A DNA stretch of 64,000 nt from a bacterium BMS3Abin03 (GTDB lineage: Bacteria > Bacteroidota > Ignavibacteria > Ignavibacteriales > Ignavibacteriaceae): the NCBI GenBank assembly GCA_002898075.1, contig BDSV01000161.1, positions 8,168 to 72,167 of the forward strand, written 5' to 3'. The translations under genes were made by a program, and so were the position numbers. The notes beneath the pieces were generated by a model. The model saw only the letters and a list, made by a program, of their open reading frames with translations, was not told where the DNA came from and did no database searches. Below are positions 1-23,602 of the stretch, piece after piece. The first letter of the stretch is position 1. Every line of letters starts with the position of its first letter.

Positions 1-1
1 A

Positions 2-682
2 TTACAAATATATGATAGATGTATTGAAGATAGTAAAGTCGAATCGCAAAGATTAGAAAAAGAATTAGAACAGCTAAAAGAAAAAATTAAGCTTAGGTTT
101 GCTGAAAAGAGTAACCGGGTAGCAAAGTTAGTAGCCTCAAAAGTAAAAGAAATAGAAAGAGAGATTCATAATCTGGACCTGATGGAAAAATTCAATCATA
201 AATTTACATTCAATAATTCGATAACGTATTCGGTTATCATATCATTTATAGTATTTATGATTGGCGGATTAGCCGGTTATGCTAATAGCGGCGATGTGAA
301 TGCCTGGGATTTTAAGAGTGTGATGAGTATTGTTTTTAGTGAAGGATTAAAATGGGCTGCAGTAAGTATTTTTATCGGAACATTAATTTCATTTGTTCTA
401 TCAGCATCAACTTTCCTGGAAAAATCGAACAGGAAAACGCAATTAATGAAGGAAATTGGGAGCATAAAAAAAAGAAAAGAAACAGAAATTGAAAATCTAA
501 AAATTATAGCCGAAGAGCGTGAAAAAAATCTTGAAGAGAGATTTCATAGTAGAATTAAAGAATATAATCAAAGAGCCGAAGGTTTGAAGAGCCAAAAGTT
601 AACCGAGCAAAATACTCTAAGGGAATCGGCAATGGTTAAATATACAAAACTCGATGAACAATTGGCTGCATTAATAAATTAA
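2..682 (+). CDS. hypothetical coiled-coil / membrane protein, probably 5-prime truncated by the window edge
   Basis: The ORF track starts at the first ATG (182), but the same frame is open with no stop back to nt 2 (LQIYDRCIEDSKVESQRLEKELEQLKEK...). There is no Shine-Dalgarno before 182. Two hydrophobic segments (ITYSVIISFIVFMIGGLAGY, WAAVSIFIGTLISFVLSA) are followed by a charged coiled-coil tail. No family recognised. Confidence 0.5.
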   Translation, partial: LQIYDRCIEDSKVESQRLEKELEQLKEKIKLRFAEKSNRVAKLVASKVKEIEREIHNLDLMEKFNHKFTFNNSITYSVIISFIVFMIGGLAGYANSGDVNAWDFKSVMSIVFSEGLKWAAVSIFIGTLISFVLSASTFLEKSNRKTQLMKEIGSIKKRKETEIENLKIIAEEREKNLEERFHSRIKEYNQRAEGLKSQKLTEQNTLRESAMVKYTKLDEQLAALIN

Positions 683-951
683 CTACTCACCTAAATTGCT
701 GGCTACTATTAGCCATCTAAACAGAGAAAACCACTACAGCCACTTAAATTCTTAATATTTGCGATAATAACTGCTTGGTATGGTTATAGGGATTAAAAGA
801 TGCAGGTAAAATACAGCTATGCTCTATTTGTTGCCGAATAGCAATTAATCAAGGCATTATAAAATCTTTCGAACGATAAAATATTTTTAGCGAATAACAA
901 CTTTTCATAGCTGTTCAATTAATTCTTATAAATTAATGCATAAGAAGTAGC

Positions 952-3900
952 ATGGATACAAATTATCATGATCAATTACCGGATGAAGATAAATTAAATT
1001 TTCTTTTTGAAAGACTTATTGCAGCAAAAAAATATGATGAATGCGAGGTATTATGTAAAAATATTTTAGAAAAAAATTCAAATAGTTCAATTGCATTTAA
1101 AGCTCTTGGAAATATTAATTTCGAACAAAACAATATTCAACAAGCACTTCAGTTTTATGAAAAGTCAATCGAAGCCAATCAAAATAATGTTGAAAGTGTT
1201 GAAAAACTATTTCAATTATATTCAACTTTCTTGCAACAAGATAAGTTAAATAATTTATTGTGCAGGGTATATAGAACAACGAATTTAAATTTCGGATATT
1301 TTTTACCAGAACTGGAAACCGCTGCTGCAACTGAATTTAATAAAATTTATCAGGAATACTTTTTACGAATAATCTTTAAGGAAATTAAATCCATTTTTGT
1401 TGAATTAGTTTATTCTCCAATTTGGAGCGGCTCTCCAGGTACTATCACCGAGTGGAAAAACAGTAGTATTCGGTCACCAAGATTTGAATGGCTGTTAAGA
1501 AACTGCCAAAATGTTATTCCAGAATTTTATTCTTTTCTGAATGATAAATTACAGGAATTCGATTCTAGCATCCCGATGAAAGAAACCTTTCGCCTATTAA
1601 ACAAAGGTTTATTGGATGTAACAAAAAGATTAAATGGAAATTTTATTTCGTTGGGAAAGAAAAAAATGGAATCTGAATTATCATTCGAGATTTGGGAAAA
1701 TAATCTTAAAGGCAGAGACGAAGAGGAATTATTATTAAAGTTTAATGAATTTATTCAAACAGAAAATATATATTCCGTGTTACTGCACGGAAGTCTTGCA
1801 GATGGAAAAACTGAAAAGGGGTATAGCGACTTCGATGTGACGTTTATTCTCAACATACCTAAAGACCCTTCCAAAGACGAATTATTTTCAATAGCTGAAG
1901 CCGTAGTAAAATCCAACCACTTTTTGCTCGCTTATAATCCTTTTATGCATCATGGTCCGTTATTAAATTTTATAGATGAATTAAATTGGGCAACTGAGGC
2001 ATCATTTCCGTCTGTACTTGTAAGAAATGGCATATGGATGAAAAACAGTATTAAACATGTATCCTATATTGATGATGGTTTGGATTTTATTCTCTCTTTT
2101 TCACCGTTCGATAATTTCTTCGCGAATAATTTTCAACAGCCCGAAGATTTTCATAATCCTTTTGATTTGATTTGGTGGTCTTCTTCCGTAATGTTTTTGC
2201 CCTTATTGTTAACACAAATGTTGGATAAAAAATCAATTTGGAAAAGAGATTTATTAACAAAAAAGAATGATTTAATTCCTGCAAAGTATTGGGAACTGCT
2301 TGAAGAAATATCTTCTATACGCAAAAAGGTAGCGCAATTAATCCAGAAGAAAGTATCATTACCTTCAACTGTTTTAATATCGGATGAGAATCCCGGTATT
2401 ATATTGAATCGATTTAAAGAAAAATTCCCGCTTGATTTAGCTGAAATACAATCGGTGGGAATAACAAATAAATTAATTAACACTACAAAAGAGTTCTGGC
2501 TATTTTGTAAAAACGCTGTCTTCTATTATAATTTTATTAACCAGCATAGTTCTAACAGTAGCTTAAATATTTTTCTTAATAATTGGGCTAATGATATAAC
2601 AGAGATACCTGTACCTTCAACATTCGATATTTATCAAGAGACCAAGGAGTATTTCTTAAAACTCTGCGAAACTATTCCTCAGATCATTTCTGTATATGAA
2701 TTTGGAAACGTTGGCAGCCCCGGATTATCGGATCTGGATTTGCTTGTGATATTTGATGATGAATTATCCGGAATACCATCTCAATTAACGATCAATTCGA
2801 TGCAGCAAAAATATGCTGAGGTTTTCAATCATAATCCCATATTTATTTCGGAATCTTCGCTGCCGATGTTTGGTGCGATCTTTCCATTGTTTAATTGTAA
2901 AAGAATATTCGGCAAAGAACAAATAATTAAGCTAACAACAGAATTTGATACGCTTGTTCAGCTTTCACTATTCACTTTTATAAATGTATTAAAATATCCT
3001 AGAGATATAATTTATCTTTCAAAACAAAATAAACTACGTTGGAAAACTTTACTTACTTATCTGAACAGCTTTAATCATGTAGCAAAAGCATTTGAGTTAT
3101 TAAATATAACAGTACCTTTATCGATTCAGAAATGCTTGCAATTGAATGATTACATAAGGACTAATTTTCAGGAAAATAAAATGTCGATTGATGATCTGAA
3201 GGATGCACTTTTATTAATGCTTGAAGGCAGTACAGATATGATTTTGGTTTTTGATAAAATATGGGCAGAAGCAATTCCTGAACTTAAAGATATATATGGA
3301 ACTGTTGAAAAAAATAAATATTTTAAACAAGTATTAAATTCTTTAACATCAAAAACCACAACCTATCCAAAATTACCACCTATACTTAATGTAGTTATGC
3401 TTCACCTTCAAAAAATTGATGACAAAATAAATATTCCATCATCTGTTTTTGAGAAAATTGAAAAAGCTTTCTCTGAATATATTCGTTATAAAAATAATTT
3501 CATCCAAAATGAACTTGTTCACCGTCGAAATATAGATCATTATATTATTGGTAATGCATTTTCCACTTTGCCCGACCAAGCTGAACAAAAAGATTATTCC
3601 CTTGCAAACATCAAAGAATTAGAATCCCCTCAGTTTGAATGGTTCATGTTCAAATTAAATGCATTCGCTTATGAACACTCGCTTCGCATGATGATCAATT
3701 GGTCTAAAATATGGGAGTATCCCTGGATCTGGTTTAATGCATTACATAATATTGATTTTGATGGAAAGACTGCTGTCGATTTAGGGAGCGAACTTTCACC
3801 TATTCCCTGGCTGTTGGCAATGAAAGGTGCAAATGTTGTATTAATAGAAACTGATGAACAGTATATTTCAGACTGGCGGCGTCTTAATAAAGAATTAAAT

Positions 3901-6900
3901 CTGAATGTTGAATGGAGAATTGTTAGTGATGAAAAAATTCCTTTACCTAATAATTCTGCAGATATTCTAACAAGTTTCTCTGTTCTTGAACATCAGCCCG
4001 ATAAAAATGGAGCTGTTGAGGAAGTAATTAGAATTTTAAAACCAAATGGTGTTTTTGCTCTTTCATTTGATATTTGTGAAACTAATATGGGAATGACTTT
4101 CCCGGAATGGAATGGGAAAGCGATTGATTTACAGGACTTTGAAACTATATTATGGACGAATCCTGCATTTCAAAAGTCATTCAAACCAGAGTGGAATATA
4201 AATGATATTACAAGTTTCTGGCAGTGGCATTTACAGTCTGCTGAACATCATAACTATGTAACTGCTGCAGCAATATTTTATAATAAAAAGATCGAGTTAA
4301 AAAATGAAGAAGCTAAAAACATCGTTTGGGTTCGAATCGATTCTATTGGCGATAATATTCTTGCTTCTTCTATACTTCCGCACATCAAACAAAAATTTTC
4401 TAATTCGAAGACTACTGTCATCTGCCAGGAACACATCTCTGAGTTGTATGAATCATCACCGTATGTTGATAATATTATTCCACTTGACAAAAAGAAGTAC
4501 GAAGAAGATAATGATTACCGCAGAGAGTTCATTAACAAGCTTAATGAATTAGATCCCGATTATGTCCTTAATTCAGTTTTTTCGCGAGAAGAAATTGGAG
4601 ATGAAATTGTTGAAAATATTGATAGTAAAGTAAAAATTGGATTTTTTGGTGATACAAACAATATAAGTGAGGAGCAAAGGGAGACGAATAATAAATTCTA
4701 TACTCATCTTATTCCTAATGATAATTCCGATTATCCAATAGAATTGAACTTACACAAACAATTCTTAAATTACCTCAATATTGAAGTTGAAGCACTTAAG
4801 CCGGTAGTATGGATTACAGATGAAGACAGAGAATTTGCGAATCATCTAATGCAACAATATGATATTGAACAGAATAAATTCCTCGTACTATTTGCGGGAG
4901 CTCAAAGTTTTGCAAAAAGTTTTTATGATTTTGGTAAAGCTATTAAGTCTTTTGTAGAAGAAAATAGTCTTTCTGTAATAGCACTGGGTGATAATAAAGA
5001 TTTTAATGTAAATCAAATAAACCTTGATGAACTTAATGTTTCAACTGTTAATCTATCCGGTAAAACTACACTTAGGCAAGCAATCGCAATAGTAGAAAAA
5101 GCTTCAATGGCTGTAGGAGTGGATACTGGATTAGCTCATGTTTCTGCAGCCGTTGAAATACAAAACGTTATTCTGCTTGGCGGCGGTCACTTCGGCAGGT
5201 TTATGCCTTATTCTAATTTAACTTCTATAGTAGCCCTGCCGCTAAATTGTTACAGGTGCGATTGGAGATGTAAACATGGTTCCGCTTATTGCGTTAAAGA
5301 TGTTGATTACAAAGTAATTGAAGAAGCTGTCAATCAAACATTTAGTAAAAAGTCTGATAAGGCACGTGTTTTTATTCAGACAATTTTTCAACCTGAAACT
5401 GATAGAGAAAAACCCAAATGGGAATTTGATGATGACTTACTTTCAGATCAAAATATAGAAATAATAAAAGTTAAACCTGAAATCTCCTTGAAGGAAATTG
5501 AATTACTTATCCTTGGGAAAGAATATGAAAAAGCAATAAACCATTTACGAGGATTGTTAAATTTCAATCCTGATGATATTAATGTTCTAAATAATCTTGC
5601 AGTTGTTCAAATTTTAACAAAAAGATGGGAGAATGCCTCTCAAACATTAATAGCTGTTCTAAAAATTGATCCTGAAAATCAGGTTGCGATTGAAAATGTT
5701 CAATACCTGGAAAAGCAACTCGTATATCATAAAGCAATTCTTGATTCCGAAGAATTAATAAAACAACATAATTTTGAAGATGCGAAAAAGATACTTCGAG
5801 AAATATTAAATCATGAACCTAATCATATAGATGCTTTGAATAATCTTGCAGTTGTTGAAATTTCTAAAAACAATCTTGCCGAAGCAAATTTAGTACTTGA
5901 AAAAATACTTAACTTAGACCCCGAAAACAGTGTGGCATTGAATAATAAAAATGTATTATGGGAACTTATTGGGCAAGACACTTCCCCCGGTCAGGTAATA
6001 AAAATCGTCGATAGTAATTATCCGAAAATCTCCATAATCACCCCTTCATTCAATCAGGGCAAATACATCGAAAAAACAATCCAAAGTGTTTTTGAACAGA
6101 ACTATCCTAATTTGGAATATATTATAATCGATGGCGGCTCGACTGATAATACCGTTGAAATAATTAAAAAATATCAGGATAAAATTGATTATTGGGTAAG
6201 TGAAAAAGATGATGGACAAGCTGATGCAATAAACAAAGGAATTAAGAAAGCAACAGGTGAAATCATTGCTTGGCTTAACTCCGATGATTTCTATTATCCC
6301 GATGCGCTGCACGGCATTGCCGAAGCTTATCTAAAATATCCTGATGCCGGACTGTACACGGGAAACGGTTATAAGGTAGATCGTTCGGGAAATAATCCAA
6401 GGTTATATGCAAATAGTGTCGGATTCGATTACAATGCTCTGTTAAATGGTTCCTGTTTTATTTTACAACCTTCTACATTTATTAATAGAAAAGCTGTTGA
6501 TAAGCTCGGTTTGCTTGACGACTCACTCCGCTATGGTTTAGACCTTGAGTACTGGCTTAGAATAGGTAAGGAGTTTGATGTTATTGTTATTAATAAACCG
6601 CTCTCTGCTTACAGGTGGTACGATGAAATAAAAACAAACGAAGGATTTAAACGATGGATTGAACTGTGGCAGATTTACAAAAGATATACCGATGCGGAGA
6701 TTACTCCCGGTTTGCTGGTTGAATTTTTCTCTATTCTTAAAAAGGATTTTGTAAGGAAGGATTTAGAAATTGATGTTAAAGACTTAGCTGCGAAAGGTTT
6801 TGAATATACTTATCTTTTAATGCAGCAGGCACTTAACCTTAAAGATTGCATACCCGAAGGAAGGGGTATCATTTGCACTCCAACTTTGAAAGATAAAAGT

Positions 6901-9900
6901 AGTAATCATATTAAGCCCAAGCAAATCTCCGTTGTAAAAGATTTAAATACAAAACCTAAAATCGATGTTGTTCTTCAGGCAACGGGGGTGCATGCGTGGG
7001 GAGTAGGCAGAGGATGGGAAAATGGTGCTAATAAACTCGGGCTTCATCATAGAACATTTGCTCCGGGTGCAAGTTGGGGCGCAAAGGATGTTGATTGTGA
7101 TGATGGTTTGTACGATTACCTTCTCAAGCCCGAAGCGGATGTTATGATTCTTTTAGGTTTCGATTGGCATTCTCAGATGCTTCATTTGAATCCTAAATGG
7201 AAAGATAGATGGCTGAAGACAAGCATTTATAAAGTGCTTTATGTACAGGAATCTGTCGAAAATCATTGCAAGTTATTTAATACTCTAAATATGAAATCCT
7301 CCTTGATTTCGGCGGCAGAGATTGCTGACTTTATCGTTTATACCGATTTGAACGATACGGAATTTATTAAAAGTTTGGGTAAACCATACTTGTTGCAGCC
7401 ATTTGGTGTGGATGATACGGTTTTCAATATAAAAAAGGATTTAACTTCAAGGAAAAACAGGGCATTCTTCAGAGGTAAAATTGTACCGTTTAATAATGAC
7501 AACGCTTATGCAGAAAGACGGACGTTGCTAAAATACCTGCTGGATAATGATCTTATTGACTTAATTGAATATAGTAATCAACCGGTAACTGCCGGGGAAA
7601 TTGCCCGTGACTTTAATCAATATACAACTGCTGTAAACCTTCCATCCGTCTTTGCCAATCATCCCACGCGTGTTTATGAAGCATTAGCTTGCGGATGTGC
7701 GCTGATAACTAACAAGACAAACATTCCGAAAGTTGATAGTTTATTTGAGGATGGAGTTCATCTTATCTATTATTCTGATAAAACATCACTACAAAAATCG
7801 ATTGGGTTACTTCAAGGAGATAAGAAGTTACTTAATGACCTTTCAAAAAACGGATATGAGTATGTGCTTGATAATTTTACTTTGGATAAGCACTTAAATG
7901 AAATTATAAGTTATTCGAAAAATAGAATATCATTATCTGAACAAGAGACGAAAATTGACATTCCGGCTAAAAGGGATAAAACAAAAATTCTAATCGACGG
8001 TGTAATCTTTCAACTGCAAAAGAACCGCCCGCATGGGATCTATCGCGTCTGGGAGGCATTACTACGAGAATTTTCAAAGACTGATTTAGCAGATCGGATT
8101 CTTCTTTTAGATCGCGAATTATCTGCTCCGGACATTCCTAATATTCAAACAAAAGTAATTCATAGCTATACTTATGCTCAATGCAATGCAGATTCTCATT
8201 ACTTGCAGGATATTTGTGATGAAGAAAAGGCATCACTCTTTATTTCTACATACTATACTTATCCTGATAGAACGCATAACGTGTTGCTGTTACATGATAT
8301 GATTCCGGAAGCAATGGGCTGGGATTTAAGCAATGAGCATTGGAGTACCAAAATAAAAGCTTTACTTAAAGCTAATGCCTATTTCTCAGTTTCAAATTCA
8401 ACAAAAAATGATTTCATCAAATATTATCCAAAACTTTCTAATAAGAAAATATTTGTTGTTAACAATGCAGCAGATCATCATTTTAGAAAAAATAGCTTAC
8501 CTGAAATAGAAAACTTCAAGATAAAAAAGGGATTAAAAAAACCGTACTTTATTGTTAGCGGTAACAGGGATAAGTATAAAAATGCTATTCTGTTCTTTAA
8601 AGCATTTTCTAAATTGCGTAATAAAAAATCTTTCCAGGTACTAATTACCGGTGGTTCAGAAAATATCGAAGAAGAATTTCTGCCCTACTTAAAAGGAATA
8701 AATTATCAGTTAGTTCGATTAGATGATAAAGAATTATCTCTCGCTTATAACGGTGCTGTTGCCTTAGTTTATCCGTCAAAACATGAAGGGTTTGGTTTAC
8801 CGATTTTAGAAGCAATGCAATCAGGTTGCCCTGTTATAACTTGTAAAAATTCTTCGATTTCTGAAGTTGCAAATAATGCCGCGATTTATGTGAATGAAAA
8901 TGACGTTAACGAAATGAAGCAGGTATTAATTAAAGTTCAGAAGCAGGATGTAAGAAATAGCTTTATTAACAAAGGATTGAAAAATGCACTTAGATTTTCC
9001 TGGAAGAAAAGCGCAGCCGAATATAAGAAATATTTATACCGGCTTCTCCGGGAATTTAAGAATAAAAAATTAAATCCTTCAACTCCGCTTGATGAGTATA
9101 ATAAACTTTATTACCTGATTATGAAAGATGAAAGACTCGGTGTTGCTCATTCAAAACTGATTGATTTGCTTATTGACGGTATAAAAGCAGACCCTGCTGA
9201 ATTTTATAAGATCGAAAAAGAGTTGGTTAGGTTAGAGCAGTTTGATTTCTATCATCTGCTTAAATCTTTAAATAAAAAGAATAAAAAAGATCCGTTCTAT
9301 TGCTATGTAGAAGGATTAATTTATCAAAAAAATAATGATTACCATAATGCATTAGCACTTTATATGGATTCGCTAAATGCGGGGTGGACACACTGGAGAA
9401 TTGGTTACCTTGCTGCATTGGCTGCTATCGATGACAATAATCTTGATGTTGCTAAACAACTACTTGAGACAGTAATAAAAGCTAAACCGGATTACCGGGA
9501 TGCGGTGGATAAATTGCAGTTTGTAGTAGATATAATGAGCGGTAAGATTAAACCGAATAAAATAAAAGTATCGGCAATTGTATCAACGTATAATTCTGAA
9601 AAATTTATTCGTGGCTGTCTCGATGATTTAATTAATCAAACTCTCTACAAAAAAGGTGAATTGGAAATCATTGTTGTGAATTCCGGTTCAAATGAAAATG
9701 AATCACGAATCGTTCAAGAGTATCAAACGAAATTTTCAAATTTAGAATTGATCTCGACGGATGAAAGAGAAACGGTTTATAAAGCATGGAACAGGGGAAT
9801 AAAGGCAGCAACCGGAAAATATATTACAAATGCAAATACCGACGACCGTCACAGACATGATGCTTTAGAAATACTCACTCTCGAACTGGATAAAAATAAT

Positions 9901-12759
9901 GATGTGGCTTTAGTTTATGCTGATTCGAAAGTAACGCAAACTGAAAATCGTACATTCGATAATACACCTTTGAGCGGCTACTTATTATATCCTGAATTTG
10001 ATCGGCAAAAATTGTTTGAGATTTGTTTTATCGGTCCGCAGCCGATGTGGCGAAAATCATTACACGAAAAGTATGGCTATTTTGATGAAAAATTTAAATC
10101 TGCCGGCGATTCTGAATTTTGGCTTAGAATAGTATCAAAAGAAAAGTTTAAGCATATAAATCAATTGCTCGGTTTATATCTGCTTTCGATGGATAGTATT
10201 GAAAATTCTGATCGAAAGACTTCACAAAAGGAATCGGAAATTGCAAGAGAACGATACTGGAAAGGTAAAAGAAAACGTCCTTTACCGGCAGGTGCTTATT
10301 TTATTCCTTACAAAGAATCAAAATTGCAGGTAAAAGAACCTTTGTTTTCTGTCGTTGTTCCCACATTCAATAGACCGGATTACTTACCAAAAGCTCTGGA
10401 CAGCTTATCAAACCAGGTGTTTAAGAATTTTGAAGTAATTGTAGTTAATGATGGGAAAACGGATGAATCATATATAGTTGATAAATATGAAGGCAAAATT
10501 TATATTCGATATTTACATCATATTGTAAACCGTGAACGCTCAGCTTCGAGAAACGATGCGATAAAAATCGCGAGGGGAAAATATTTAGCATTCCTTGATG
10601 ATGATGATATTTATTATCCCGATCATCTTCAGTTGCTGGCAGAAAATATGGATGAGCAGTACGATATTTTTTATACAGATGCGGTTCGGGCGGTTTACGA
10701 AAAGACAGGGAATAAATATAAACTGAAGGACAAGTATGTTCTCTATTCTATCGAATATGACAGGAATAAATTATTAATTGGAAATATTGCACCAATCAAC
10801 TGTTTTGCCGTATCTAAATCAATTGCATTTAAAGCGGGTTTATTTGATGAAACAATTAATGTTTTGGAAGACTGGGAATTCCTTATTCGACTATCCAAAT
10901 TCTCAAATTTCAAACATATAAAACAAAATACTGTTGAAGTAACCTGGAAAGATGATGAAACTACAACTACTTCAAAAATGAGAGATGAATTTTCTATAAC
11001 GAGAAAAAAAATCTATCAAAAGTATGAAAAAGAAATAGCTGAAATTCCAAACAAAGATGAAATCATAAGTGAGTTTAATTCTATTTGGAGAAATGATTTT
11101 TCTATTAATAAAGTCATTGTATCGATAATTATTCCGACGATTAATCAAGTAGAGTTTACACGGCAATGTATTGAAAGTATTGAAAAGTTTACCGATGTAG
11201 AATATGAGATTATTGTAGTTGATAATGCTTCAACAGATAACACGATTGAAGAAGTTCGGAAATATTCAAATGTTAAGATTATAAGAAATTCAGAAAATAG
11301 GGGCTTCCCTAAAGCAATAAATCAAGGAATAAAAGCGGCTAAAGGTAAATATATTCTTATCGCCAACAACGATATTGTTGTTACTGAAGGTTGGTTAAAC
11401 CGTATGATTGAGATTGCAAAAGGCGACGATAGTATTGGCTTGGTAGGTCCAATTTCAAATTCTGTTAGTTGGTATCAGATAGATAAAGATGCAAAGTATA
11501 ACACTTTGGAAGAGATGCATACTTATGCAGAGAAGGTAAAAGAGAAAAACAAAAATAAAACGGAAGAATTCCCACGCATTGCATTTTTATGCGCTCTAAT
11601 CAAGCGAGAAGTTACAGATAAAATTGGCGGTTTGGATGAGCGGTTTTCACCCGGGAATTATGAAGATGATGATTTTTGCCTGCGTGCGCAGTTGGCAGGT
11701 TATAAAACAGTAATAGCAAAGGATGTATTTATTCATCATTTCGGATCAAAGAGTTTTACTAATGAGGGTAAAGATAAATATTTGCAGTTGCTCGGGAGGA
11801 ATAAAGAAATATTTGTTGAAAAATGGGGAGCCGATCCGGAACAGATCTGGCTGAAAGGTGAAAAACCAAAATCGGTGGATATAGTTTACCCTCTTCATGA
11901 AAACAAATTTACAAAATCATTCCGAAGGGCAACAAAAAATATTAATGAAAAAGATTTCAAATCTGCAAGTGCCAATCTGAAAATTGCAATTGAAAATTAT
12001 GAGGAGTCTGCGAATAATGAATTAATTGAATATTCAACTTTACTAAATCTTGCAGGTAATATTGCATTATATAATAATGATTTGCAATCGGCGAAAAACT
12101 TTTTTGAAGATGAACTTAATTACAAACCCGATTCTGCTACTGCTTGCTTTGGTCTTGCAGAGTTATTATTCCTCGATGAAAACTACAAAGCAGCTAAGAT
12201 AATGTTTGAATACGCAGTAAAAAACGATCCCGATTATGAATTAGCAATATCAGGTTTACGAAAGACAAACAGACTATTGCAGTTACCGCCGGATGATAAC
12301 ACTTTGCAAGTAAATGATGGACAAAATTCTTTAGAAAAAGTAGAAAAATTGCTAAAGGAAGCACGTAAAAATTTTGAGAGTAAAAACTTTAGTGATGCTT
12401 TAAAACTGGTAACGGAAGCAGAGAAATTGATAGAAAATGGCTCGCTTAATGGGCAAGAGCAGGAGTTGCTCGTTCCTTTAAATAACTTTAAAGGGTATTG
12501 CTATGTAGGTTTAAATAAACTTGATGATGCCAAATCATGCTTTGAAAATGCTTTGAAAACCGAACCGAATTCCTCCGATGCTTGCGCTGGTCTGGCAGAA
12601 GCGGATTACCTTTCCGGGAATGATCAAGAAGCGAAGGTTATGTTTGAGTGGGCGGTTAAAAATGATTCGGATAATTTATTTGCGGTTGAAAGGTTGAAAA
12701 AAGTTAATTTACATTTAGGATACGAAGAAGCACATAATTCTCTTTTAGTTGAACAATAA
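952..12759 (+). CDS. giant multidomain TPR / nucleotidyltransferase-like / SAM-methyltransferase / multi-glycosyltransferase protein (3,935 aa)
   Basis: Uninterrupted 11.8-kb ORF in AT-rich DNA. Motifs read by eye, approximate nt: TPR 952-1280. Pol-beta-type NTase signature LLHGSLADGKTEKGYSDFDV ~1768-1850. Second NTase-like FGNVGSPGLSDLDLLVIF ~2695-2760. Class I SAM-MTase (AVDLGSE ... LEHQPD ... ILKPNGVFALSFD) ~3760-4080. GT9/heptosyltransferase-like (VWVRIDSIGDNIL ... VGVDTGLAHVSAA) ~4315-5345. TPR ~5490-5960. GT2 no.1 (ISIITPSFNQGKYIEKTIQSV..IIIDGGSTDNT) ~6025-6700. CgeB-like GT-B (FFRGKI ... RVYEALACGCALITNK) ~6960-7920. GT4 (PSKHEGFGLPILEAMQSGCPVI, E-x7-E at 8785-8811) ~7975-9060. TPR-like ~9060-9540. 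GT2 no.2 (VSAIVSTYNSEKFI) ~9565-10230. GT2 no.3 (FSVVVPTFNRPDYL) ~10342-11000. GT2 no.4 (VSIIIPTINQVEF ... VVDNASTDNT) ~11119-11850. TPR ~11900-12756. No signal peptide or convincing TM helix. Confidence 0.9.
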   Translation: MDTNYHDQLPDEDKLNFLFERLIAAKKYDECEVLCKNILEKNSNSSIAFKALGNINFEQNNIQQALQFYEKSIEANQNNVESVEKLFQLYSTFLQQDKLNNLLCRVYRTTNLNFGYFLPELETAAATEFNKIYQEYFLRIIFKEIKSIFVELVYSPIWSGSPGTITEWKNSSIRSPRFEWLLRNCQNVIPEFYSFLNDKLQEFDSSIPMKETFRLLNKGLLDVTKRLNGNFISLGKKKMESELSFEIWENNLKGRDEEELLLKFNEFIQTENIYSVLLHGSLADGKTEKGYSDFDVTFILNIPKDPSKDELFSIAEAVVKSNHFLLAYNPFMHHGPLLNFIDELNWATEASFPSVLVRNGIWMKNSIKHVSYIDDGLDFILSFSPFDNFFANNFQQPEDFHNPFDLIWWSSSVMFLPLLLTQMLDKKSIWKRDLLTKKNDLIPAKYWELLEEISSIRKKVAQLIQKKVSLPSTVLISDENPGIILNRFKEKFPLDLAEIQSVGITNKLINTTKEFWLFCKNAVFYYNFINQHSSNSSLNIFLNNWANDITEIPVPSTFDIYQETKEYFLKLCETIPQIISVYEFGNVGSPGLSDLDLLVIFDDELSGIPSQLTINSMQQKYAEVFNHNPIFISESSLPMFGAIFPLFNCKRIFGKEQIIKLTTEFDTLVQLSLFTFINVLKYPRDIIYLSKQNKLRWKTLLTYLNSFNHVAKAFELLNITVPLSIQKCLQLNDYIRTNFQENKMSIDDLKDALLLMLEGSTDMILVFDKIWAEAIPELKDIYGTVEKNKYFKQVLNSLTSKTTTYPKLPPILNVVMLHLQKIDDKINIPSSVFEKIEKAFSEYIRYKNNFIQNELVHRRNIDHYIIGNAFSTLPDQAEQKDYSLANIKELESPQFEWFMFKLNAFAYEHSLRMMINWSKIWEYPWIWFNALHNIDFDGKTAVDLGSELSPIPWLLAMKGANVVLIETDEQYISDWRRLNKELNLNVEWRIVSDEKIPLPNNSADILTSFSVLEHQPDKNGAVEEVIRILKPNGVFALSFDICETNMGMTFPEWNGKAIDLQDFETILWTNPAFQKSFKPEWNINDITSFWQWHLQSAEHHNYVTAAAIFYNKKIELKNEEAKNIVWVRIDSIGDNILASSILPHIKQKFSNSKTTVICQEHISELYESSPYVDNIIPLDKKKYEEDNDYRREFINKLNELDPDYVLNSVFSREEIGDEIVENIDSKVKIGFFGDTNNISEEQRETNNKFYTHLIPNDNSDYPIELNLHKQFLNYLNIEVEALKPVVWITDEDREFANHLMQQYDIEQNKFLVLFAGAQSFAKSFYDFGKAIKSFVEENSLSVIALGDNKDFNVNQINLDELNVSTVNLSGKTTLRQAIAIVEKASMAVGVDTGLAHVSAAVEIQNVILLGGGHFGRFMPYSNLTSIVALPLNCYRCDWRCKHGSAYCVKDVDYKVIEEAVNQTFSKKSDKARVFIQTIFQPETDREKPKWEFDDDLLSDQNIEIIKVKPEISLKEIELLILGKEYEKAINHLRGLLNFNPDDINVLNNLAVVQILTKRWENASQTLIAVLKIDPENQVAIENVQYLEKQLVYHKAILDSEELIKQHNFEDAKKILREILNHEPNHIDALNNLAVVEISKNNLAEANLVLEKILNLDPENSVALNNKNVLWELIGQDTSPGQVIKIVDSNYPKISIITPSFNQGKYIEKTIQSVFEQNYPNLEYIIIDGGSTDNTVEIIKKYQDKIDYWVSEKDDGQADAINKGIKKATGEIIAWLNSDDFYYPDALHGIAEAYLKYPDAGLYTGNGYKVDRSGNNPRLYANSVGFDYNALLNGSCFILQPSTFINRKAVDKLGLLDDSLRYGLDLEYWLRIGKEFDVIVINKPLSAYRWYDEIKTNEGFKRWIELWQIYKRYTDAEITPGLLVEFFSILKKDFVRKDLEIDVKDLAAKGFEYTYLLMQQALNLKDCIPEGRGIICTPTLKDKSSNHIKPKQISVVKDLNTKPKIDVVLQATGVHAWGVGRGWENGANKLGLHHRTFAPGASWGAKDVDCDDGLYDYLLKPEADVMILLGFDWHSQMLHLNPKWKDRWLKTSIYKVLYVQESVENHCKLFNTLNMKSSLISAAEIADFIVYTDLNDTEFIKSLGKPYLLQPFGVDDTVFNIKKDLTSRKNRAFFRGKIVPFNNDNAYAERRTLLKYLLDNDLIDLIEYSNQPVTAGEIARDFNQYTTAVNLPSVFANHPTRVYEALACGCALITNKTNIPKVDSLFEDGVHLIYYSDKTSLQKSIGLLQGDKKLLNDLSKNGYEYVLDNFTLDKHLNEIISYSKNRISLSEQETKIDIPAKRDKTKILIDGVIFQLQKNRPHGIYRVWEALLREFSKTDLADRILLLDRELSAPDIPNIQTKVIHSYTYAQCNADSHYLQDICDEEKASLFISTYYTYPDRTHNVLLLHDMIPEAMGWDLSNEHWSTKIKALLKANAYFSVSNSTKNDFIKYYPKLSNKKIFVVNNAADHHFRKNSLPEIENFKIKKGLKKPYFIVSGNRDKYKNAILFFKAFSKLRNKKSFQVLITGGSENIEEEFLPYLKGINYQLVRLDDKELSLAYNGAVALVYPSKHEGFGLPILEAMQSGCPVITCKNSSISEVANNAAIYVNENDVNEMKQVLIKVQKQDVRNSFINKGLKNALRFSWKKSAAEYKKYLYRLLREFKNKKLNPSTPLDEYNKLYYLIMKDERLGVAHSKLIDLLIDGIKADPAEFYKIEKELVRLEQFDFYHLLKSLNKKNKKDPFYCYVEGLIYQKNNDYHNALALYMDSLNAGWTHWRIGYLAALAAIDDNNLDVAKQLLETVIKAKPDYRDAVDKLQFVVDIMSGKIKPNKIKVSAIVSTYNSEKFIRGCLDDLINQTLYKKGELEIIVVNSGSNENESRIVQEYQTKFSNLELISTDERETVYKAWNRGIKAATGKYITNANTDDRHRHDALEILTLELDKNNDVALVYADSKVTQTENRTFDNTPLSGYLLYPEFDRQKLFEICFIGPQPMWRKSLHEKYGYFDEKFKSAGDSEFWLRIVSKEKFKHINQLLGLYLLSMDSIENSDRKTSQKESEIARERYWKGKRKRPLPAGAYFIPYKESKLQVKEPLFSVVVPTFNRPDYLPKALDSLSNQVFKNFEVIVVNDGKTDESYIVDKYEGKIYIRYLHHIVNRERSASRNDAIKIARGKYLAFLDDDDIYYPDHLQLLAENMDEQYDIFYTDAVRAVYEKTGNKYKLKDKYVLYSIEYDRNKLLIGNIAPINCFAVSKSIAFKAGLFDETINVLEDWEFLIRLSKFSNFKHIKQNTVEVTWKDDETTTTSKMRDEFSITRKKIYQKYEKEIAEIPNKDEIISEFNSIWRNDFSINKVIVSIIIPTINQVEFTRQCIESIEKFTDVEYEIIVVDNASTDNTIEEVRKYSNVKIIRNSENRGFPKAINQGIKAAKGKYILIANNDIVVTEGWLNRMIEIAKGDDSIGLVGPISNSVSWYQIDKDAKYNTLEEMHTYAEKVKEKNKNKTEEFPRIAFLCALIKREVTDKIGGLDERFSPGNYEDDDFCLRAQLAGYKTVIAKDVFIHHFGSKSFTNEGKDKYLQLLGRNKEIFVEKWGADPEQIWLKGEKPKSVDIVYPLHENKFTKSFRRATKNINEKDFKSASANLKIAIENYEESANNELIEYSTLLNLAGNIALYNNDLQSAKNFFEDELNYKPDSATACFGLAELLFLDENYKAAKIMFEYAVKNDPDYELAISGLRKTNRLLQLPPDDNTLQVNDGQNSLEKVEKLLKEARKNFESKNFSDALKLVTEAEKLIENGSLNGQEQELLVPLNNFKGYCYVGLNKLDDAKSCFENALKTEPNSSDACAGLAEADYLSGNDQEAKVMFEWAVKNDSDNLFAVERLKKVNLHLGYEEAHNSLLVEQ

Positions 12760-17441: not shown

Positions 17442-17469
17442 TAAACTTTTAGTTACCTCCATCCGATAA
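17442..17469 (+). promoter_or_regulatory. sigma-28 (FliA/SigD)-type promoter of the flagellin gene
   Basis: TAAACTTT (17442-17449), a 12-nt spacer, then TCCGATAA (17462-17469). The consensus is TAAAGTTT-N11-GCCGATAA, so there is one mismatch in each box and a spacer one nt longer. It lies 77 nt upstream of the flagellin ATG. Confidence 0.7.
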
Positions 17470-17545: not shown

Positions 17546-18355
17546 ATGCCTTTCAAAATCAACACAAACCTAAGCGCATTGGACGCTTATAATGCCTTAG
17601 CCAGGGTAAATGCTCAAACAAATAAAGCACAGTTACGGCTGGCTTCACAATTGAGAATCAACTCTGTTGCCGATGACACATCGGGTTACAGGGTTGGTAA
17701 AGAGCTCGAAGGTAAAGTAACTCTTATGAAAGCTGCCCAGGGTAATATCGGTGCAGCAAAAAATACTCTTTCCACTGCTGAATCAGCACTAACTAACATA
17801 AATGATTTGCTGATACAGATTAAGGGTAAAATAGCCGAAGCAAATGATCCTACTAAAAACCTGACCGCTCTGGCTAATGATATAAATGCACTGGGTGATG
17901 AAATCAGTGCAATATTTACTAACACCAAGTTTAATGATACTGCACTACTTAGTGGATCGGCACTTCCGTCAAGCAGTAATTTTGTATTCCAGACCGGGGA
18001 AACTGAAAAGACAACCATCAACTTCGGTACAATGAATACACTTGATCTTGCATCTATTTCAAGCAGCGGTGCTACATCATCCAATATTACTTCCCTTAGT
18101 GTTTCTACCCTCGAAACAGCAGTGCAAGATTCATTAGGAAAGATTGGTAACTATGTACAAAGACTTGATGTAAAAGATGATTATCTAACCAGCGCCATAA
18201 CGAACGCTACAGCAAGTGTGAGCAGGCTATTTGACGCTGATATGGCAATTGAGCAGTTAAAAGCTACCAAGGGTCAGATTGGTCAACAAGTCTCCACAAC
18301 AATGTTAGCTCAGCTCAACTTTCAACCACGATCACTTCTCACCTTATTCCAGTAA
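17546..18355 (+). CDS. fliC: flagellin, short form (269 aa)
   Basis: N-terminus MPFKINTNLSALDAYNAL...RINSVADDTSGY and C-terminal D0/D1 helices (...RLFDADMAIEQLKATKGQIGQQVSTTMLAQLN) are typical flagellin_N/C. The central part is only about 55 aa and is Ser/Thr-rich. Confidence 0.95.
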   Translation: MPFKINTNLSALDAYNALARVNAQTNKAQLRLASQLRINSVADDTSGYRVGKELEGKVTLMKAAQGNIGAAKNTLSTAESALTNINDLLIQIKGKIAEANDPTKNLTALANDINALGDEISAIFTNTKFNDTALLSGSALPSSSNFVFQTGETEKTTINFGTMNTLDLASISSSGATSSNITSLSVSTLETAVQDSLGKIGNYVQRLDVKDDYLTSAITNATASVSRLFDADMAIEQLKATKGQIGQQVSTTMLAQLNFQPRSLLTLFQ

Positions 18356-18424: not shown

Positions 18425-18769
18425 ATGATTATGCAAAATTATACAACATTAAACAACAGACGTCCTAACATGAATCCGTATCTTGTAAAAGATATTTTAG
18501 AAGCTACCCAGCAGCAGCTTGTAATTAAATTGTATGATTTAGCTATCGTAAGTTGTAAAAAACATGAACTGAGAAAAACTAATAATGCAATTCAGGCGCT
18601 GATTGACGCTCTTAATTTTGAGGAAGAAAATGCTTCTCAAATCGCTACGGGTCTTTTTAAGCTTTATAAATATTGTCAGGATCAGATGAGGAACTCAAAT
18701 TACCCTATCGTAGTTAGGATTTTATCTGAACTCAGGGAAAGCTGGGTATCTGTATTTAATAATAACTAG
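18425..18769 (+). CDS. fliS: flagellin-specific chaperone FliS
   Basis: 114 aa. Motifs ...ATQQQLVIKLYDLAI...AIQALIDALNFE....IATGLFKLYKYC resemble the FliS four-helix-bundle family. Position is next to fliC/fliD. Confidence 0.8.
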   Translation: MIMQNYTTLNNRRPNMNPYLVKDILEATQQQLVIKLYDLAIVSCKKHELRKTNNAIQALIDALNFEEENASQIATGLFKLYKYCQDQMRNSNYPIVVRILSELRESWVSVFNNN

Positions 18770-18777
18770 GTAAAACG

Positions 18778-20564: not shown

Positions 20565-20897
20565 ATGGAAAATTTAGTTAACGAAATAAATAAGATTGAA
20601 TTATTGCTCAAAAGTGCTTATTCAGATTTAGATGATATTTCCAAAGAATCGTTTAATGAAAAAATGCCCCGGATAAGAGGCAAACTAAGTTTAATTGTTT
20701 CAAAAAGGAACGAACTTTTAATAAAATATAAGAGGGAAAAATTACTGAAGTACGACGAAAGCTTGTTTACCTTGTCTAAACAAATCCAAAAAAAGTTCGA
20801 TAATATAATTGAGTATTATAGTGCGGAAAAACTTGAAATTGCTCAAAAAATATTGCAGATTGAAAATAGAAAAAAATTGGCTTATTATTTAAGGTGA
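20565..20897 (+). CDS. hypothetical helical protein, possible FliT/FlgN-like export chaperone
   Basis: 110 aa, all-helical and charged. Tightly coupled, starting 2 nt after fliD. The call rests on position only. Confidence 0.35.
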   Translation: MENLVNEINKIELLLKSAYSDLDDISKESFNEKMPRIRGKLSLIVSKRNELLIKYKREKLLKYDESLFTLSKQIQKKFDNIIEYYSAEKLEIAQKILQIENRKKLAYYLR

Positions 20898-23394: not shown

Positions 23395-23602
23395 CCTCGT
23401 CCACGCCTCTCATAATTTGCAATCAAATATTATTTAATGTCTATCTGTATTTTTATCAATTTGCACTAAAAATTTCGGTTCGATATTTTTTAAAAATAAA
23501 ACCCCGATAAATTAACTTTTGCAGACTATTTTCGATAATAAATACAGAGTAATCTTTCTATTTATGGCTTTTAAGAGTACGGCTATTCATTGGATATAAT
23601 AA

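Follow-up and report, generated by a model that had tools for sequence, protein, structure and literature searches.

Glycosylation of flagellin is so far known almost entirely from single-sugar systems (Maf, FlmG, and GmaR) or from islands of separate small genes in pathogens. In the a-type flagellin island of Pseudomonas aeruginosa, several glycosyltransferases (GTs) encoded beside the flagellin gene build a heterogeneous O-glycan of up to ~11 sugars. These enzymes come from many separate genes of ordinary size, whereas a single polypeptide with TPR spacers combines most of those in the locus that we describe here.

GmaR of Listeria monocytogenes is a soluble GT-A enzyme with a TPR domain that transfers GlcNAc to flagellin in the cytoplasm (PMC9638930). 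Only one GlcNAc is added, and GmaR has a second role as anti-repressor of MogR. The same logic probably applies to a 510-aa protein of our locus, but here the GmaR-like enzyme is the small partner of an elongating protein of 3,935 aa, which is not itself a homologue of GmaR. FlmG of Caulobacter crescentus, a pseudaminyl-transferase for flagellin, combines TPR with a GT-B domain. Its TPR domain binds flagellins and is needed for their glycosylation, whereas sugar transfer, in the cytoplasm, is the task of the GT domain (PMC7591256). FlmG and Maf resemble the giant protein in being modular and in being encoded inside flagellar loci, but they transfer one nonulosonic acid per site, whereas seven GT modules are combined with modifying domains in the giant. 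By the account of one report, flagellin is glycosylated before it is bound by its chaperone and exported (PMC4065374).

A multi-module build is also known from the polymerase-terminator enzymes of ABC-transporter-dependent O-antigen synthesis: WbdA/WbdD (E. coli O9a and Klebsiella O3), WbbB (Klebsiella O12), and ORF6 (Klebsiella O7). These are GT proteins of the cytoplasmic face with several modules, though far fewer than the giant has (PMC11231755). In wzt-type pathways, the terminator adds a cap that is recognised by a module of Wzt, and it can be fused to the polymerising GT modules (PMC11231755; PMC3482155). The known terminators are either a methyltransferase-kinase or a capping GT. Polymerase-terminator enzymes have 2-4 catalytic modules in ~700-1,400 aa, a coiled-coil ruler and a membrane-associated helix, and their acceptor is lipid-linked. 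The giant, in contrast, has 10 modules, TPR spacers and no membrane segment; it has an NTase fold where WbdD-type enzymes have a kinase-fold phosphotransferase; and its proposed acceptor is flagellin.

The giant gene lies in the window (the whole stretch of DNA analysed, 64 kb) from 'bacterium BMS3Abin03'. We propose, with moderate confidence, that its product does the main work of elongation and decoration in a flagellin O-glycosylation system of an FCB-group bacterium, most probably one of the Ignavibacteriota. The product is a cytoplasmic protein with ten catalytic domains, among them those of a putative capping cassette.

A 3,935-residue protein with seven glycosyltransferase domains

An earlier note, made from the sequence alone, had described one intact ORF of 3,935 codons, and we recovered it almost to the base (Table 1). 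The note had also called this frame certainly coding. Indeed, the chance of 3,935 open codons at the given base composition is ~1e-143, and the other five frames of the gene have 187-528 stops. A Pfam search with the whole protein and with 14 segments of it put the class I methyltransferase, the four TPR blocks and seven GT domains (four GT2 and one each of GT9, GT4 and the CgeB-like GT-B type) where the note had placed them. The motifs too were where it had read them, exactly so for the E-x7-E of the GT4 domain.

Table 1. Features of the giant gene and its surroundings (positions in the window)
Feature	Position (nt)	Residues (aa)	Strand	Basis or remark
Membrane protein of 615 aa, conserved (3' part)	1..682		+	1-2 TM helices near aa 463-530; no Pfam family
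Giant ORF, 3,935 aa	952..12759		+	ATG start; GenBank GBD88055.1, 'hyaluronan synthase', 'bacterium BMS3Abin03'
TPR block 1	1012..1200	21-83	+	Pfam
unk1, helical domain	1282..1716	111-255	+	always N-terminal to NT1
NT1, NTase-fold + helical domain	1717..2631	256-560	+	motif H279-G-S..S292-D-F-D295
NT2, second NTase-fold + helical domain	2632..3651	561-900	+	motif G..S593-D-L-D596
Class I SAM-methyltransferase	3769..4134	~940-1061	+	Pfam Methyltransf_11 and relatives
GT9-like (heptosyltransferase-like) GT-B	4321..5334	~1124-1461	+	PF01075 Glyco_transf_9, E 6e-17, aa 1267-1436
TPR block 2	5485..5934	1512-1661	+	Pfam
GT2 'a'	6031..6684	1694-1911	+	Pfam aa 1694-1850; DxD-type motif SDD
CgeB-like GT-B	6952..7971	2001-2340	+	PF13524 Glyco_trans_1_2, E 1e-13, core aa 2209-2319
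GT4	8281..8976	2444-2675	+	Glyco_transf_4 + Glycos_transf_1; E-x7-E at nt 8785-8811
TPR-like spacer 3, weak	9229..9513	2760-2854	+	Pfam, weak
GT2 'b'	9571..10266	2874-3105	+	Pfam aa 2874-3023
GT2 'c'	10348..10965	3133-3338	+	Pfam aa 3133-3287; DxD-type motif DDD
GT2 'd'	11122..11817	3391-3622	+	Pfam aa 3391-3558
TPR block 4, C-terminal	11926..12690	3659-3913	+	Pfam
TPR-GT4 protein, 1,029 aa	12786..15875		+	26 nt after giant gene
GmaR-like GT2-TPR protein, 510 aa	15894..17426		+	18 nt after TPR-GT4 gene
Sigma-28 (FliA)-like promoter motif	17442..17468		+	TAAA-N16-TCCGATA, upstream of flagellin gene
Flagellin, 269 aa	17546..18355		+	no large outer domains; proposed acceptor
FliS chaperone + FliD filament cap	18425..20562		+	domain search

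The highest 19-residue Kyte-Doolittle hydropathy of the giant is 1.48 (no stretch reaches the threshold of 1.6) and its N-terminus is acidic, so we find no transmembrane (TM) helix or signal peptide in it, as the earlier note had held. By this simple hydropathy test, as opposed to a dedicated predictor, the giant is predicted to be soluble and cytoplasmic, like the enzymes of flagellin glycosylation. Together with the Pfam and motif results, this bears out the view of a cytoplasmic multi-enzyme in which seven GT domains, a methyltransferase and two NTase-fold domains are punctuated by TPR blocks.

The DxD-type motif is kept in all four GT2 domains. The GT9-like domain matches the models for heptosyltransferases I, II and III well under their cut-offs (and PDB entry 1psw with E 8e-5), and GT2 'd' resembles rhamnosyltransferase and MftF models, again under their cut-offs. 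Because all of the GT modules score far below the cut-offs of specific NCBIfam models, no donor or linkage can be assigned to them. Motif I of the methyltransferase has a family-specific form, 'VDLGSELSPIPW'.

The name 'hyaluronan synthase' in GenBank is a misleading over-annotation, which our analysis corrects. Class I hyaluronan synthases have several TM helices and the giant has no TM segment; a class II enzyme, whose two GT2 domains would match HAS or chondroitin synthase specifically, is rejected because the GT2 modules fit only generic GT2 models, under all specific cut-offs. (The similarity of GT2 to the chondroitin synthase K4CP, E 2e-27, is at the level of the GT2 family.)

A flagellar neighbourhood with a GmaR homologue

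The giant gene heads an operon with the TPR-GT4 and GmaR-like genes, at the gaps given in Table 1. The TPR-GT4 protein is likely a co-operonic elongating GT and is an optional member of the locus. In contrast, the GmaR-like gene is present in every related locus, adjoining the flagellin gene. Its product matches the catalytic domain of GmaR (PDB 22ao) with E 2.5e-37 and, like GmaR, has a TPR region (at its C-terminus). It also matches SunS peptide glycosyltransferases (E 1e-26; for the NCBIfam SunS family 1e-31, below the cut-off). We found no sign of an anti-repressor domain in it. This homology makes the 510-aa protein a candidate for the enzyme that primes flagellin. Thus the locus contains a homologue of a proven flagellin glycosyltransferase; the giant itself has no such specific match.

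In the flagellin, 26 of the 70 residues at aa 131-200 are Ser or Thr. The sigma-28-like motif upstream of its gene is also present upstream of fliC in two related loci (L003 and L004); upstream of the giant gene, no such motif was found. After fliC, fliS and fliD, a flagellar cluster of >40 kb fills the rest of the window. (The flagellar context and the GmaR-like neighbour are absent from the earlier note.) We found no nucleotide-sugar biosynthesis genes in the window. Among the scanned ORFs of at least 150 aa (all but four of those in the window), there are no genes of the nonulosonic-acid (pseudaminic or legionaminic) pathway, and Pfam reports no Maf domain (PF01973) in the giant or in its nine nearest neighbours. 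A Maf- or FlmG-type nonulosonic-acid system is therefore improbable.

Directly upstream of the giant is the gene for a membrane protein whose homologues (615-621 aa) also precede the giant in L001, L002, L005, L006 and L007. The L003 homologue is broken up into two ORFs (359 and 170 aa), and in L004 three unannotated ORFs (265, 215 and 98 aa) are found at this position. It is possible that the 615-aa protein is a membrane partner of the giant.

Conservation, fusion and fission

The gene order giant, GT2-TPR, fliC, fliS, fliD is kept in seven further loci (L001-L007), whose giants are 36-51% identical to that of the window. Linkage of GT genes to the flagellin gene across genomes is characteristic of a flagellin glycosylation system. 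A protein substrate had been proposed before and is still the best reading; flagellin can now be named as the probable acceptor, because it is encoded 4.8 kb downstream of the giant, behind the GmaR-like homologue, and because this arrangement is kept in all seven loci.

The most widely conserved module is GT2 'b', with 542 relatives in species-representative genomes. Among the loci around the best 80 of these 542 (49-77% identical), 20 have fliC in the flank, including loci from Ignavibacteria, Thiogranum, Thiohalobacter, Anaerolineales and Calditrichaceae. The other 60 have no fliC in the flank; many of these are short, or the giant ORF takes up all of their flank. In 37 of the 80 loci, there are ORFs of 2,000 codons or more, the longest of which encodes 4,710 aa. 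Giants with GT2 'b' in the cyanobacteria Microcoleus and Tychonema have no flagellin gene within the flank, and cyanobacteria are not known to have flagella, so this class of enzymes reaches beyond flagellin.

The giant polypeptide is a fusion of enzymes that are encoded separately in relatives. GT2 'b', 'c' and 'd' with TPR block 4 form a separate gene of 1,077 aa in L008, and TPR block 4 is a gene of its own (281-286 aa) in L010 and L013-L015. In L007, the counterpart of P0008, a relative of 2,337 aa, is a pair of overlapping genes for 1,140 and 1,192 aa, with 86% nucleotide identity. Hence, the fusion state differs among close relatives, and gene boundaries are module boundaries. (Spacer 3 is mostly missing from the alignment with the close relative L009.)

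The earlier note had not recognised the architecture as described. We found no published description of flagellin-linked mega-enzymes in the literature that we searched, but the giant does not stand alone in its architecture: many phyla have relatives of 2,000-4,710 aa whose catalytic domains are as numerous or more so. It is one member of a widespread class of giant enzymes that has gone unstudied.

A putative capping cassette

Two Pol-beta-type nucleotidyltransferase signatures had been noticed in the N-terminal part, and they do belong to a conserved tandem of NTase-fold domains (HGS..SDFD at nt 1786-1839 and SDLDLLV at nt 2728-2748). NT1 matches PF01909 (NTP_transf_2) at aa 263-316 with 22.1 bits, just above the cut-off of 21, and its motif is nearly invariant in 26 homologues. 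NT2 has no match in Pfam; its G..SDLD motif is invariant in the 26 homologues. NT2 carries G-N instead of G-S, and its loop is shorter. The predicted order of strands and helices in both fits a Pol-beta-type core. For the AlphaFold model of NT1 (pLDDT 88), the top Foldseek matches are the aminoglycoside nucleotidyltransferases ANT(9) and AadA (E 0.03-0.6). For that of NT2 (pLDDT 87.6, pTM 0.86), they are MntA minimal nucleotidyltransferases, with a probability of 0.93-0.97 and an E-value of only ~0.07. By motif and predicted core, NT1 and NT2 may thus be assigned to the Pol-beta-type superfamily, although the E-values for the fold are weak (0.03-0.07).

In ANT(9), AadA and MntA, as in NT1 and NT2, an NTase core with the G-S...D-x-D motif is followed by a helical domain, and the ANT enzymes act on hydroxyls of amino sugars, which is the kind of chemistry needed for a glycan cap. 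In contrast to these enzymes, NT1 and NT2 are in tandem and are ~300-340 aa each, the structural matches are weak, with E 0.03-0.6 and a TM of 0.36-0.46 on the target, and comparison with ANT and MntA gave no significant sequence similarity. The helical domain unk1 has no match in Pfam, NCBIfam or the PDB.

In four independent loci (L088, L089, L094 and L100), the gene next after wzm/wzt encodes a free-standing NT-NT(-MT) protein; this is the slot of O-antigen-type loci that we take to be the place of the chain terminator WbdD. Pfam finds the cap-binding domain Wzt_C on the Wzt of L088 and L089; in L094 and L100, its presence is inferred from full-length tblastn matches to the Wzt of L088. The methyltransferase of the free-standing cassettes is 55-59% identical to that of the giant and has the same unusual motif I. 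The next module after the cassette is a GT9 in L088, L094 and L100, as well as in L097, but not in L089.

This NTase-fold family is unnamed; among 1.84 billion representatives, it has 35 clusters at E ≤ 1e-30. Because free-standing members occupy the terminator slot of wzt loci, we tentatively tie it to glycan capping. In the giant, a methyltransferase is fused to GT modules, with the NTase-fold tandem in the position that a kinase would take; the methyltransferase has no specific similarity to WbdD in our comparison. By analogy of position, the cassette may be a fused capping module, which is the weakest step of our proposal. One relative (P0002) is without the entire NT-MT half; therefore, capping is not universal in these systems.

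Proposed mechanism and alternatives

We propose three steps. First, judging from homology and synteny, the GmaR-like GT2-TPR enzyme would place the first sugar, a HexNAc by analogy with GmaR, on Ser or Thr of flagellin in the cytoplasm before export. Second, the seven GT modules and the TPR-GT4 protein would lengthen this sugar to a hetero-oligosaccharide. The TPR blocks might serve to hold the partner enzymes or, like the TPR domain of FlmG, flagellin. Third, the unk1-NT1-NT2-MT cassette may methylate the non-reducing end and might put a phosphoryl or nucleotidyl group there as well. Such a cap could halt elongation as WbdD-type terminators do for O-antigen; gene position in other phyla suggests this.

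The alternative that survives best, which we nevertheless consider unlikely, is that the giant makes a lipid-linked or free polysaccharide (like O-antigen, capsule or EPS) and that its flagellar neighbourhood reflects co-regulation or chance. The NT-NT-MT cassette with its subsequent GT9 module does occur in O-polysaccharide-type loci with wzm/wzt, GT9 is classically a family of the LPS core, and an ordinary polysaccharide locus (WecG, Bac_transf, Wzy_C) is a few kb upstream in L004 and L005. The conserved membrane protein before the giant and the cyanobacterial relatives without a nearby flagellin gene would also fit. However, neither the window nor L001-L007 nor any of the 80 anchored loci yielded a Wzm, a Wzt_C, a flippase or a polyprenyl-phosphate GT, and the giant has no membrane anchor. 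Furthermore, the order giant, GmaR-like GT, fliC, fliS, fliD is kept tightly despite the divergence of the giants, and fliC is near a quarter of the anchored loci (20/80), far above the ~1% that we roughly estimate for a random 20-kb stretch. By the same lack of wzm/wzt, which accompany only the four free-standing cassettes, the giants differ from the ABC-transporter-dependent polymerase-terminator class.

Two further alternatives are, in our view, each rather improbable. In the first, several modules would be inactive scaffolds and the true number of reactions much smaller than ten, with the NT domains perhaps structural or regulatory. The lack of a significant match of NT1 and NT2 to any characterised enzyme, the deviation of motif I from the canonical GxGxG, and the scores of the GT modules under all specific family cut-offs would agree with this. 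Against it, the DxD-type and E-x7-E motifs are intact, the carboxylates of the NTase G-S...DxD motif are (nearly) invariant in the 26 homologues, which come from several phyla, and the variant motif I is itself kept across phyla. Also, pN/pS is 0.15-0.30 in every catalytic module compared with L009, with synonymous sites near saturation.

In the second, with about as little in its favour, the system glycosylates proteins but its main acceptor is another protein, such as the Ser/Thr-rich cap FliD, hook-associated proteins or pilins, or flagellin is one of many targets of general O-glycosylation. TPR blocks are generic protein-binding modules, and the FliD of the window is conspicuously rich in Ser and Thr. 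Also, a cyanobacterial TPR-GT glycosylates pilin (PMC9306852), and cyanobacteria carry giants with GT2 'b'. On the other hand, the universally conserved partner is a homologue of GmaR, whose known substrate is flagellin, and fliC is always immediately downstream of the GmaR-like gene.

It is very improbable that the single ORF arose by assembly or sequencing error from several ordinary GT genes: the source genome is metagenome-assembled, and parts of the giant are separate genes in close relatives, but two other assemblies contain an ORF of identical length with 1-2 amino acid differences (in contigs of 27 and 113 kb), no DNA repeat within the gene is longer than a 37-nt pair (73% identity), unrelated assemblies have fused ORFs of 3,300-4,710 aa, and so long an open frame would hardly occur by chance.

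Implications

If our reading of flagellin O-glycosylation is correct, then environmental bacteria of several phyla can fuse a whole pathway of elongation and decoration into one soluble polypeptide of 2,000-4,700 residues. Such a fusion is a natural 'Rosetta stone', which shows which GTs, methyltransferase and uncharacterised domains act together, and it yields a directly testable prediction of capping for an unnamed NTase-fold family. For glyco-engineering, it may offer a compact, soluble and possibly reprogrammable means of placing defined oligosaccharides on a protein in the cytoplasm.

A bolder version, which we offer as speculation with the odds against it, is a 'glycan megasynthase': one polypeptide would hold flagellin by its TPR blocks and hand the growing O-glycan from each module to the next in a set sequence, so that the order and content of the modules encode the glycan sequence, much as the modules of NRPS and PKS enzymes encode their product. 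An NTase-fold capping family that has so far escaped recognition would finish the glycan. It would take the place of the WbdD-type kinase here and, in other phyla, in wzt-dependent O-antigen systems. If this were true, the module swaps that are visible between relatives in nature would reprogram the flagellar glycan.

A single open reading frame for the giant

The earlier note had described the giant gene as a single ORF of 3,935 codons, encoding four TPR blocks interleaved with sugar-modifying domains, and we confirmed one ATG-started frame on the forward strand. With this base composition, stops should turn up roughly once per 12 codons, and the probability of 3,935 open codons is ~1e-143; the five other frames across the gene contain 187-528 stops. 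An assembly artefact is unlikely: the ORF recurs in two other assemblies, differing there by 1-2 substitutions, and no internal repeats are present in the gene.

When we scanned the full-length protein and 14 overlapping segments against Pfam, every catalytic domain proposed by eye was recovered in its place (Table), except that the second of two NTase signatures had no match. Three TPR blocks were clear and the fourth was weak. The motif coordinates were also exact (E-x7-E at nt 8785-8811; NTase signatures at nt 1786-1839 and 2728-2748), and all four GT2 domains keep a DxD-type motif. As in the earlier note, no signal peptide or transmembrane (TM) helix is seen: hydrophobicity stays too low for a TM helix throughout the protein, and the N-terminus is acidic. 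A search of the modules against NCBIfam gave no assignments above the cut-off, so no donor sugar can be inferred for them. GenBank labels the giant (GBD88055.1, from "bacterium BMS3Abin03") as "hyaluronan synthase," a name that over-annotates the protein on the basis of a single GT2 domain; the giant does not qualify as a hyaluronan synthase. A neighboring gene is likewise named "TPR repeat-containing protein YrrB" in the database.

Features of the giant, its neighborhood, and related loci (window nt unless a locus or aa is given)
Feature	Location	Length	Remarks
Conserved membrane protein	1-682 (gene begins before window); L001:7884-9731	~615 aa	precedes giant
Giant	952-12759 (+)	3,935 aa	
TPR blocks	aa 21-83, 1512-1661, 3659-3913; weak fourth, 2760-2854		Pfam
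Methyltransferase	aa ~940-1061		Methyltransf_11 and relatives
GT9-like	aa 1267-1436		Glyco_transf_9
Four GT2	aa 1694-1850, 2874-3023, 3133-3287, 3391-3558		Glycos_transf_2
CgeB-like	aa 2209-2319		Glyco_trans_1_2
GT4	aa 2444-2675		Glyco_transf_4 + Glycos_transf_1
TPR-GT4 protein	26 nt past giant gene	1,029 aa	
GT2-TPR protein	18 nt past TPR-GT4 gene	510 aa	
Flagellin	17546-18355, 3' of GT2-TPR gene	269 aa	then FliS, FliD
FliD	18778-20562		cap protein
Two small ORFs	20565-20897; 20902-21159	110 aa; 85 aa	charged
Regulatory block	21300-27694		after filament genes; histidine kinase, sigma-54 response regulator (FlrC/FleR-like), PAS histidine kinase, two response regulators with HDOD or HD
HDOD-HD protein	50813-51709		
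ORFs in flagellar cluster	51759-53093; 53047-53751	444 aa; 234 aa	no Pfam family
Flagellar cluster			two-component and sigma-54 regulators; FlgB/C, FliE/F/G/H/I, FliK; FlgD/E, FliL/M/P/R; FlhB/A/F/G, FliA; rod and ring proteins, FlgK/L
Sigma-28 (FliA)-like motif	17442-17468; 35500-35525; 38046-38071; 52978-53001; 56512-56538		TAAA-N14-17-CCGATA; first is upstream of fliC
Giant ORF	L047:638-14770	4,710 aa	seven GT2 stretches, GT4, GT9, three methyltransferase stretches, TPRs
Giant ORF	L070:5930-19525	4,531 aa	five GT2, four GT4, one methyltransferase
Free-standing NT-NT(-MT) genes	L088:8570-15291; L089:8598-12997; also L094, L100		

The giant precedes a GmaR-like protein and flagellin

Beyond the genes for two TPR-containing glycosyltransferases and the filament, the remainder of the 64-kb window is filled by a flagellar cluster in the same orientation; the window contains no nucleotide-sugar pathway genes. 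Among solved structures, GmaR is the best relative of the GT2-TPR protein (E = 2.5e-37 over the catalytic domain); SunS-type peptide glycosyltransferases come next, and NCBIfam agrees. GmaR is the Listeria enzyme that adds GlcNAc to flagellin, and its TPR domain is proposed to recognize flagellin (PMC9638930). Similarly, the TPR domain of Caulobacter FlmG binds flagellins and is needed for their glycosylation (PMC7591256). The flagellin in the window is without large outer domains, and 26 of its 70 central residues are Ser or Thr. This gene neighborhood suggests that flagellin is probably the acceptor. FliD is also very rich in Ser and Thr, with long runs of them, and could be a second glycosylation target. 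A sigma-28 (FliA)-like motif lies upstream of fliC and at four other sites in the flagellar cluster; neither sigma-28 nor sigma-54 motifs were found 5' of the giant gene.

Gene order is conserved across giant loci

Seven relatives of the giant (2,186-3,528 aa) are 36-51% identical to it. We compared seven loci (L001-L007): those of five of these relatives, one split form, and a second assembly of the query. In all seven, the giant or its two halves is followed by an optional TPR-GT4 gene, a ~500-aa GT2-TPR protein, fliC, fliS, and fliD, and then, where the contig goes on, by two small ORFs. A histidine kinase and a sigma-54 regulator come next in L001, L003, L005, and L007; in L002, this pair is upstream on the opposite strand. 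The small ORFs (107-112 and 82-85 aa in L001, L002, L003, L005, and L007) have no Pfam match on record in the window and may encode flagellar chaperone or FlaG-like proteins.

Upstream of the giant, most of the seven loci encode a conserved protein of ~615 aa. It has 1-2 TM helices (near aa 463-530) and helical stretches rich in Lys and Glu, belongs to no Pfam family, and might anchor the soluble giant to the membrane or act as its partner. We considered whether the 615/616-aa upstream genes might be the missing NT modules of the relative P0002 (L002), but they encode a distinct, conserved membrane protein, to which BLAST found nothing similar in any giant. Together with the nearest relatives, an upstream T9SS-tail gene puts the organism in the FCB group, most likely in Ignavibacteriota.

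A scan anchored on GT2b, with one genome per species, found 542 relatives. Among the best 80 of these 542, fliC lies within the ±10-kb flank at 20 loci, which is far above the expectation for random 20-kb regions (~1%, a rough estimate) and probably understates the linkage, since the giant ORF takes up many of the loci and others are short; the count is therefore a minimum. The fliC-bearing loci include Ignavibacteria, "Bacteroidetes" MAGs, Thiogranum, Thiohalobacter, Anaerolineales, and Calditrichaceae.

Cyanobacteria (Microcoleus and Tychonema; L062, L066, L071, L074, L078-L080, L086, and L087) encode GT4-GT2b-GT2 giants of 2,250-2,830 aa with no flagellin gene nearby, and are a second context for the same enzyme class. 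GT2b-type sequences (55-64% identity) are also found on short contigs from two very unlikely hosts, a Candidatus Micrarchaeia MAG (L017) and an Akkermansia muciniphila MAG (L043); this is probably due to mis-binning, the alternative being gene transfer.

The giants are a widespread class of mosaic proteins

The giant is not the only protein of its class, and there are larger ones. An ORF that runs for at least 2,000 codons from stop to stop is present in 37 of the 80 anchored loci, and 9 have one of at least 3,000. Two ORFs (in L047 and L070) outsize the query; the MAGs that carry them are "Bacteroidetes" or Ignavibacteriae.

BLAST showed that the query is composite: the N-terminal half (TPR-unk1-NT1-NT2-MT-GT9) resembles the relatives P0003-P0007, while its C-terminal 60% (GT9-TPR2-GT2a-CgeB-GT4-TPR3-GT2b-c-d-TPR4) matches P0002, which is without the NT-MT half. 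Gene boundaries in the relatives coincide with module boundaries. As to whether relatives carry the gene intact or in pieces, it is intact in the two other assemblies, but some relatives carry its parts as separate genes. The counterpart of the 2,337-aa P0008 in an Ignavibacterium MAG (L007) is a pair of overlapping genes (1,140 and 1,192 aa); the fused and split loci share 86% DNA identity, with the junction in a linker past a TPR block. In the closest relative (L008, whose flagellin is 87% identical), GT2b-c-d-TPR4 is its own 1,077-aa gene, and TPR4 stands alone in L010 and L013-L015. Relative to the related locus L009, pN/pS is 0.15-0.30 for all of the catalytic modules, with synonymous sites near saturation, and the TPR spacers evolve faster (0.35-0.64). 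Purifying selection acts on the catalytic modules.

A tandem of NTase-fold domains from an unnamed family

The two Pol-beta-type NTase signatures that were spotted by eye are present, but only NT1 matches Pfam, barely above the cut-off for NTP_transf_2. Nevertheless, aa 111-900 is the best-conserved stretch among the giant relatives that have it, and in an alignment of 26 homologues both G-S...D-x-D signatures are invariant or nearly so. AlphaFold models are confident (pLDDT of 88.4 for aa 111-900, and of 87.6 with pTM = 0.86 for NT2 alone). The best Foldseek neighbors are NTases: the tandem comes closest to the aminoglycoside O-nucleotidyltransferases ANT(9) and AadA, and NT2 to the MntA minimal NTases, but E is only 0.03-0.6; E-values were weak throughout for the 790-aa model, and modeling NT2 separately raised pTM without improving them. 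Searches of PDB with the NT region, either as a single sequence or as a 26-sequence profile, gave just sub-threshold ANT matches at the two motifs. Together, the models and the conserved motifs support an NTase fold for NT1 and NT2, in a family without a name.

NT1 and NT2 do not appear to be recent duplicates, as neither BLAST nor hhalign found significant similarity between them. Both match one population of ~390-aa single-domain proteins, which also have no Pfam family. When HMMER was run exhaustively against 1.84 billion representative proteins, only 35 clusters reached E ≤ 1e-30, and 547 reached E ≤ 1e-3.

In four loci, a free-standing cassette adjoins wzm/wzt

O-antigen chains made by the ABC-transporter-dependent route are capped at their non-reducing end by a terminator, and the Wzt module recognizes only capped chains; the terminator is either WbdD (kinase + methyltransferase) or a capping glycosyltransferase, and terminators can be fused to polymerizing modules, as in WbbB or the 1,414-aa ORF6 of Klebsiella O7 (PMC11231755; PMC3482155).

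Free-standing unk1-NT1-NT2-MT proteins of ~1,000 aa are found in Myxococcota, Phycisphaerae, and others. In four independent O-polysaccharide-type loci (L088, L089, L094, and L100), the cassette is directly 3' of wzm/wzt. The cap-binding Wzt_C domain was identified by Pfam in L088 and L089, and its presence in L094 and L100 is suggested by full-length tblastn matches to the Wzt of L088. A GT9-containing gene comes next in L088, L094, and L100, though not in L089, and GDP-mannose and deoxyhexose genes lie beside the L088 cassette. The methyltransferases of the wzt-linked proteins are 55-59% identical to the giant's and share its unusual motif I (VDLGSELSPxPW).

Going by the gene order of E. coli O9a, the cassette occupies the terminator slot. 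From this position we tentatively infer that it might cap glycan chains, with an NTase fold in place of WbdD's kinase fold, although we consider this somewhat doubtful. As candidate glycan chain terminators, the free-standing NT-NT(-MT) proteins may form a new class. When the giant's methyltransferase was searched against PDB, the matches were all generic class I enzymes, and nothing specific to WbdD emerged. An ABC-transporter route was considered for the giants too, but they are not linked to wzm/wzt: the window, L001-L007, and the 80 anchored loci gave no match to either Wzm or Wzt_C.

A model for flagellin glycosylation

Overall, we lean towards a model in which a flagellin glycan is primed, extended by the giant and the TPR-GT4 protein, capped, and exported. 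The ORF and its domains, the gene order, the homology to GmaR, the fusion and fission of modules, the purifying selection, and the wzt linkage of the free-standing cassette are direct observations; we infer the acceptor, the sequence in which the enzymes act, the sugars they donate, and the chemistry of the cap. The GmaR-like enzyme would first prime Ser/Thr residues of flagellin in the cytoplasm. The seven glycosyltransferase modules of the giant, along with the TPR-GT4 protein, would then lengthen the glycan while the TPR blocks tether the substrate or partners. Finally, the NT-NT-MT cassette would cap the glycan, and the modified flagellin would be exported.

Such a system would work like the known flagellin glycosylation systems of GmaR and FlmG and would borrow the logic of the polymerase-terminator O-antigen enzymes. 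It does not belong with the Maf/FlmG nonulosonic-acid systems or with wzt-dependent assembly. In the literature, "multidomain glycosyltransferase" refers to enzymes with two catalytic domains, and the polymerase-terminator proteins described so far reach three or four modules at most (PMC11231755). The suggestion that this architecture had not been described survives in part: our literature search found no flagellin-linked mega-enzyme, but the giant is one example of a widespread and unstudied class, a mosaic of fusable genes. Its role is likely an elaboration of a known process.
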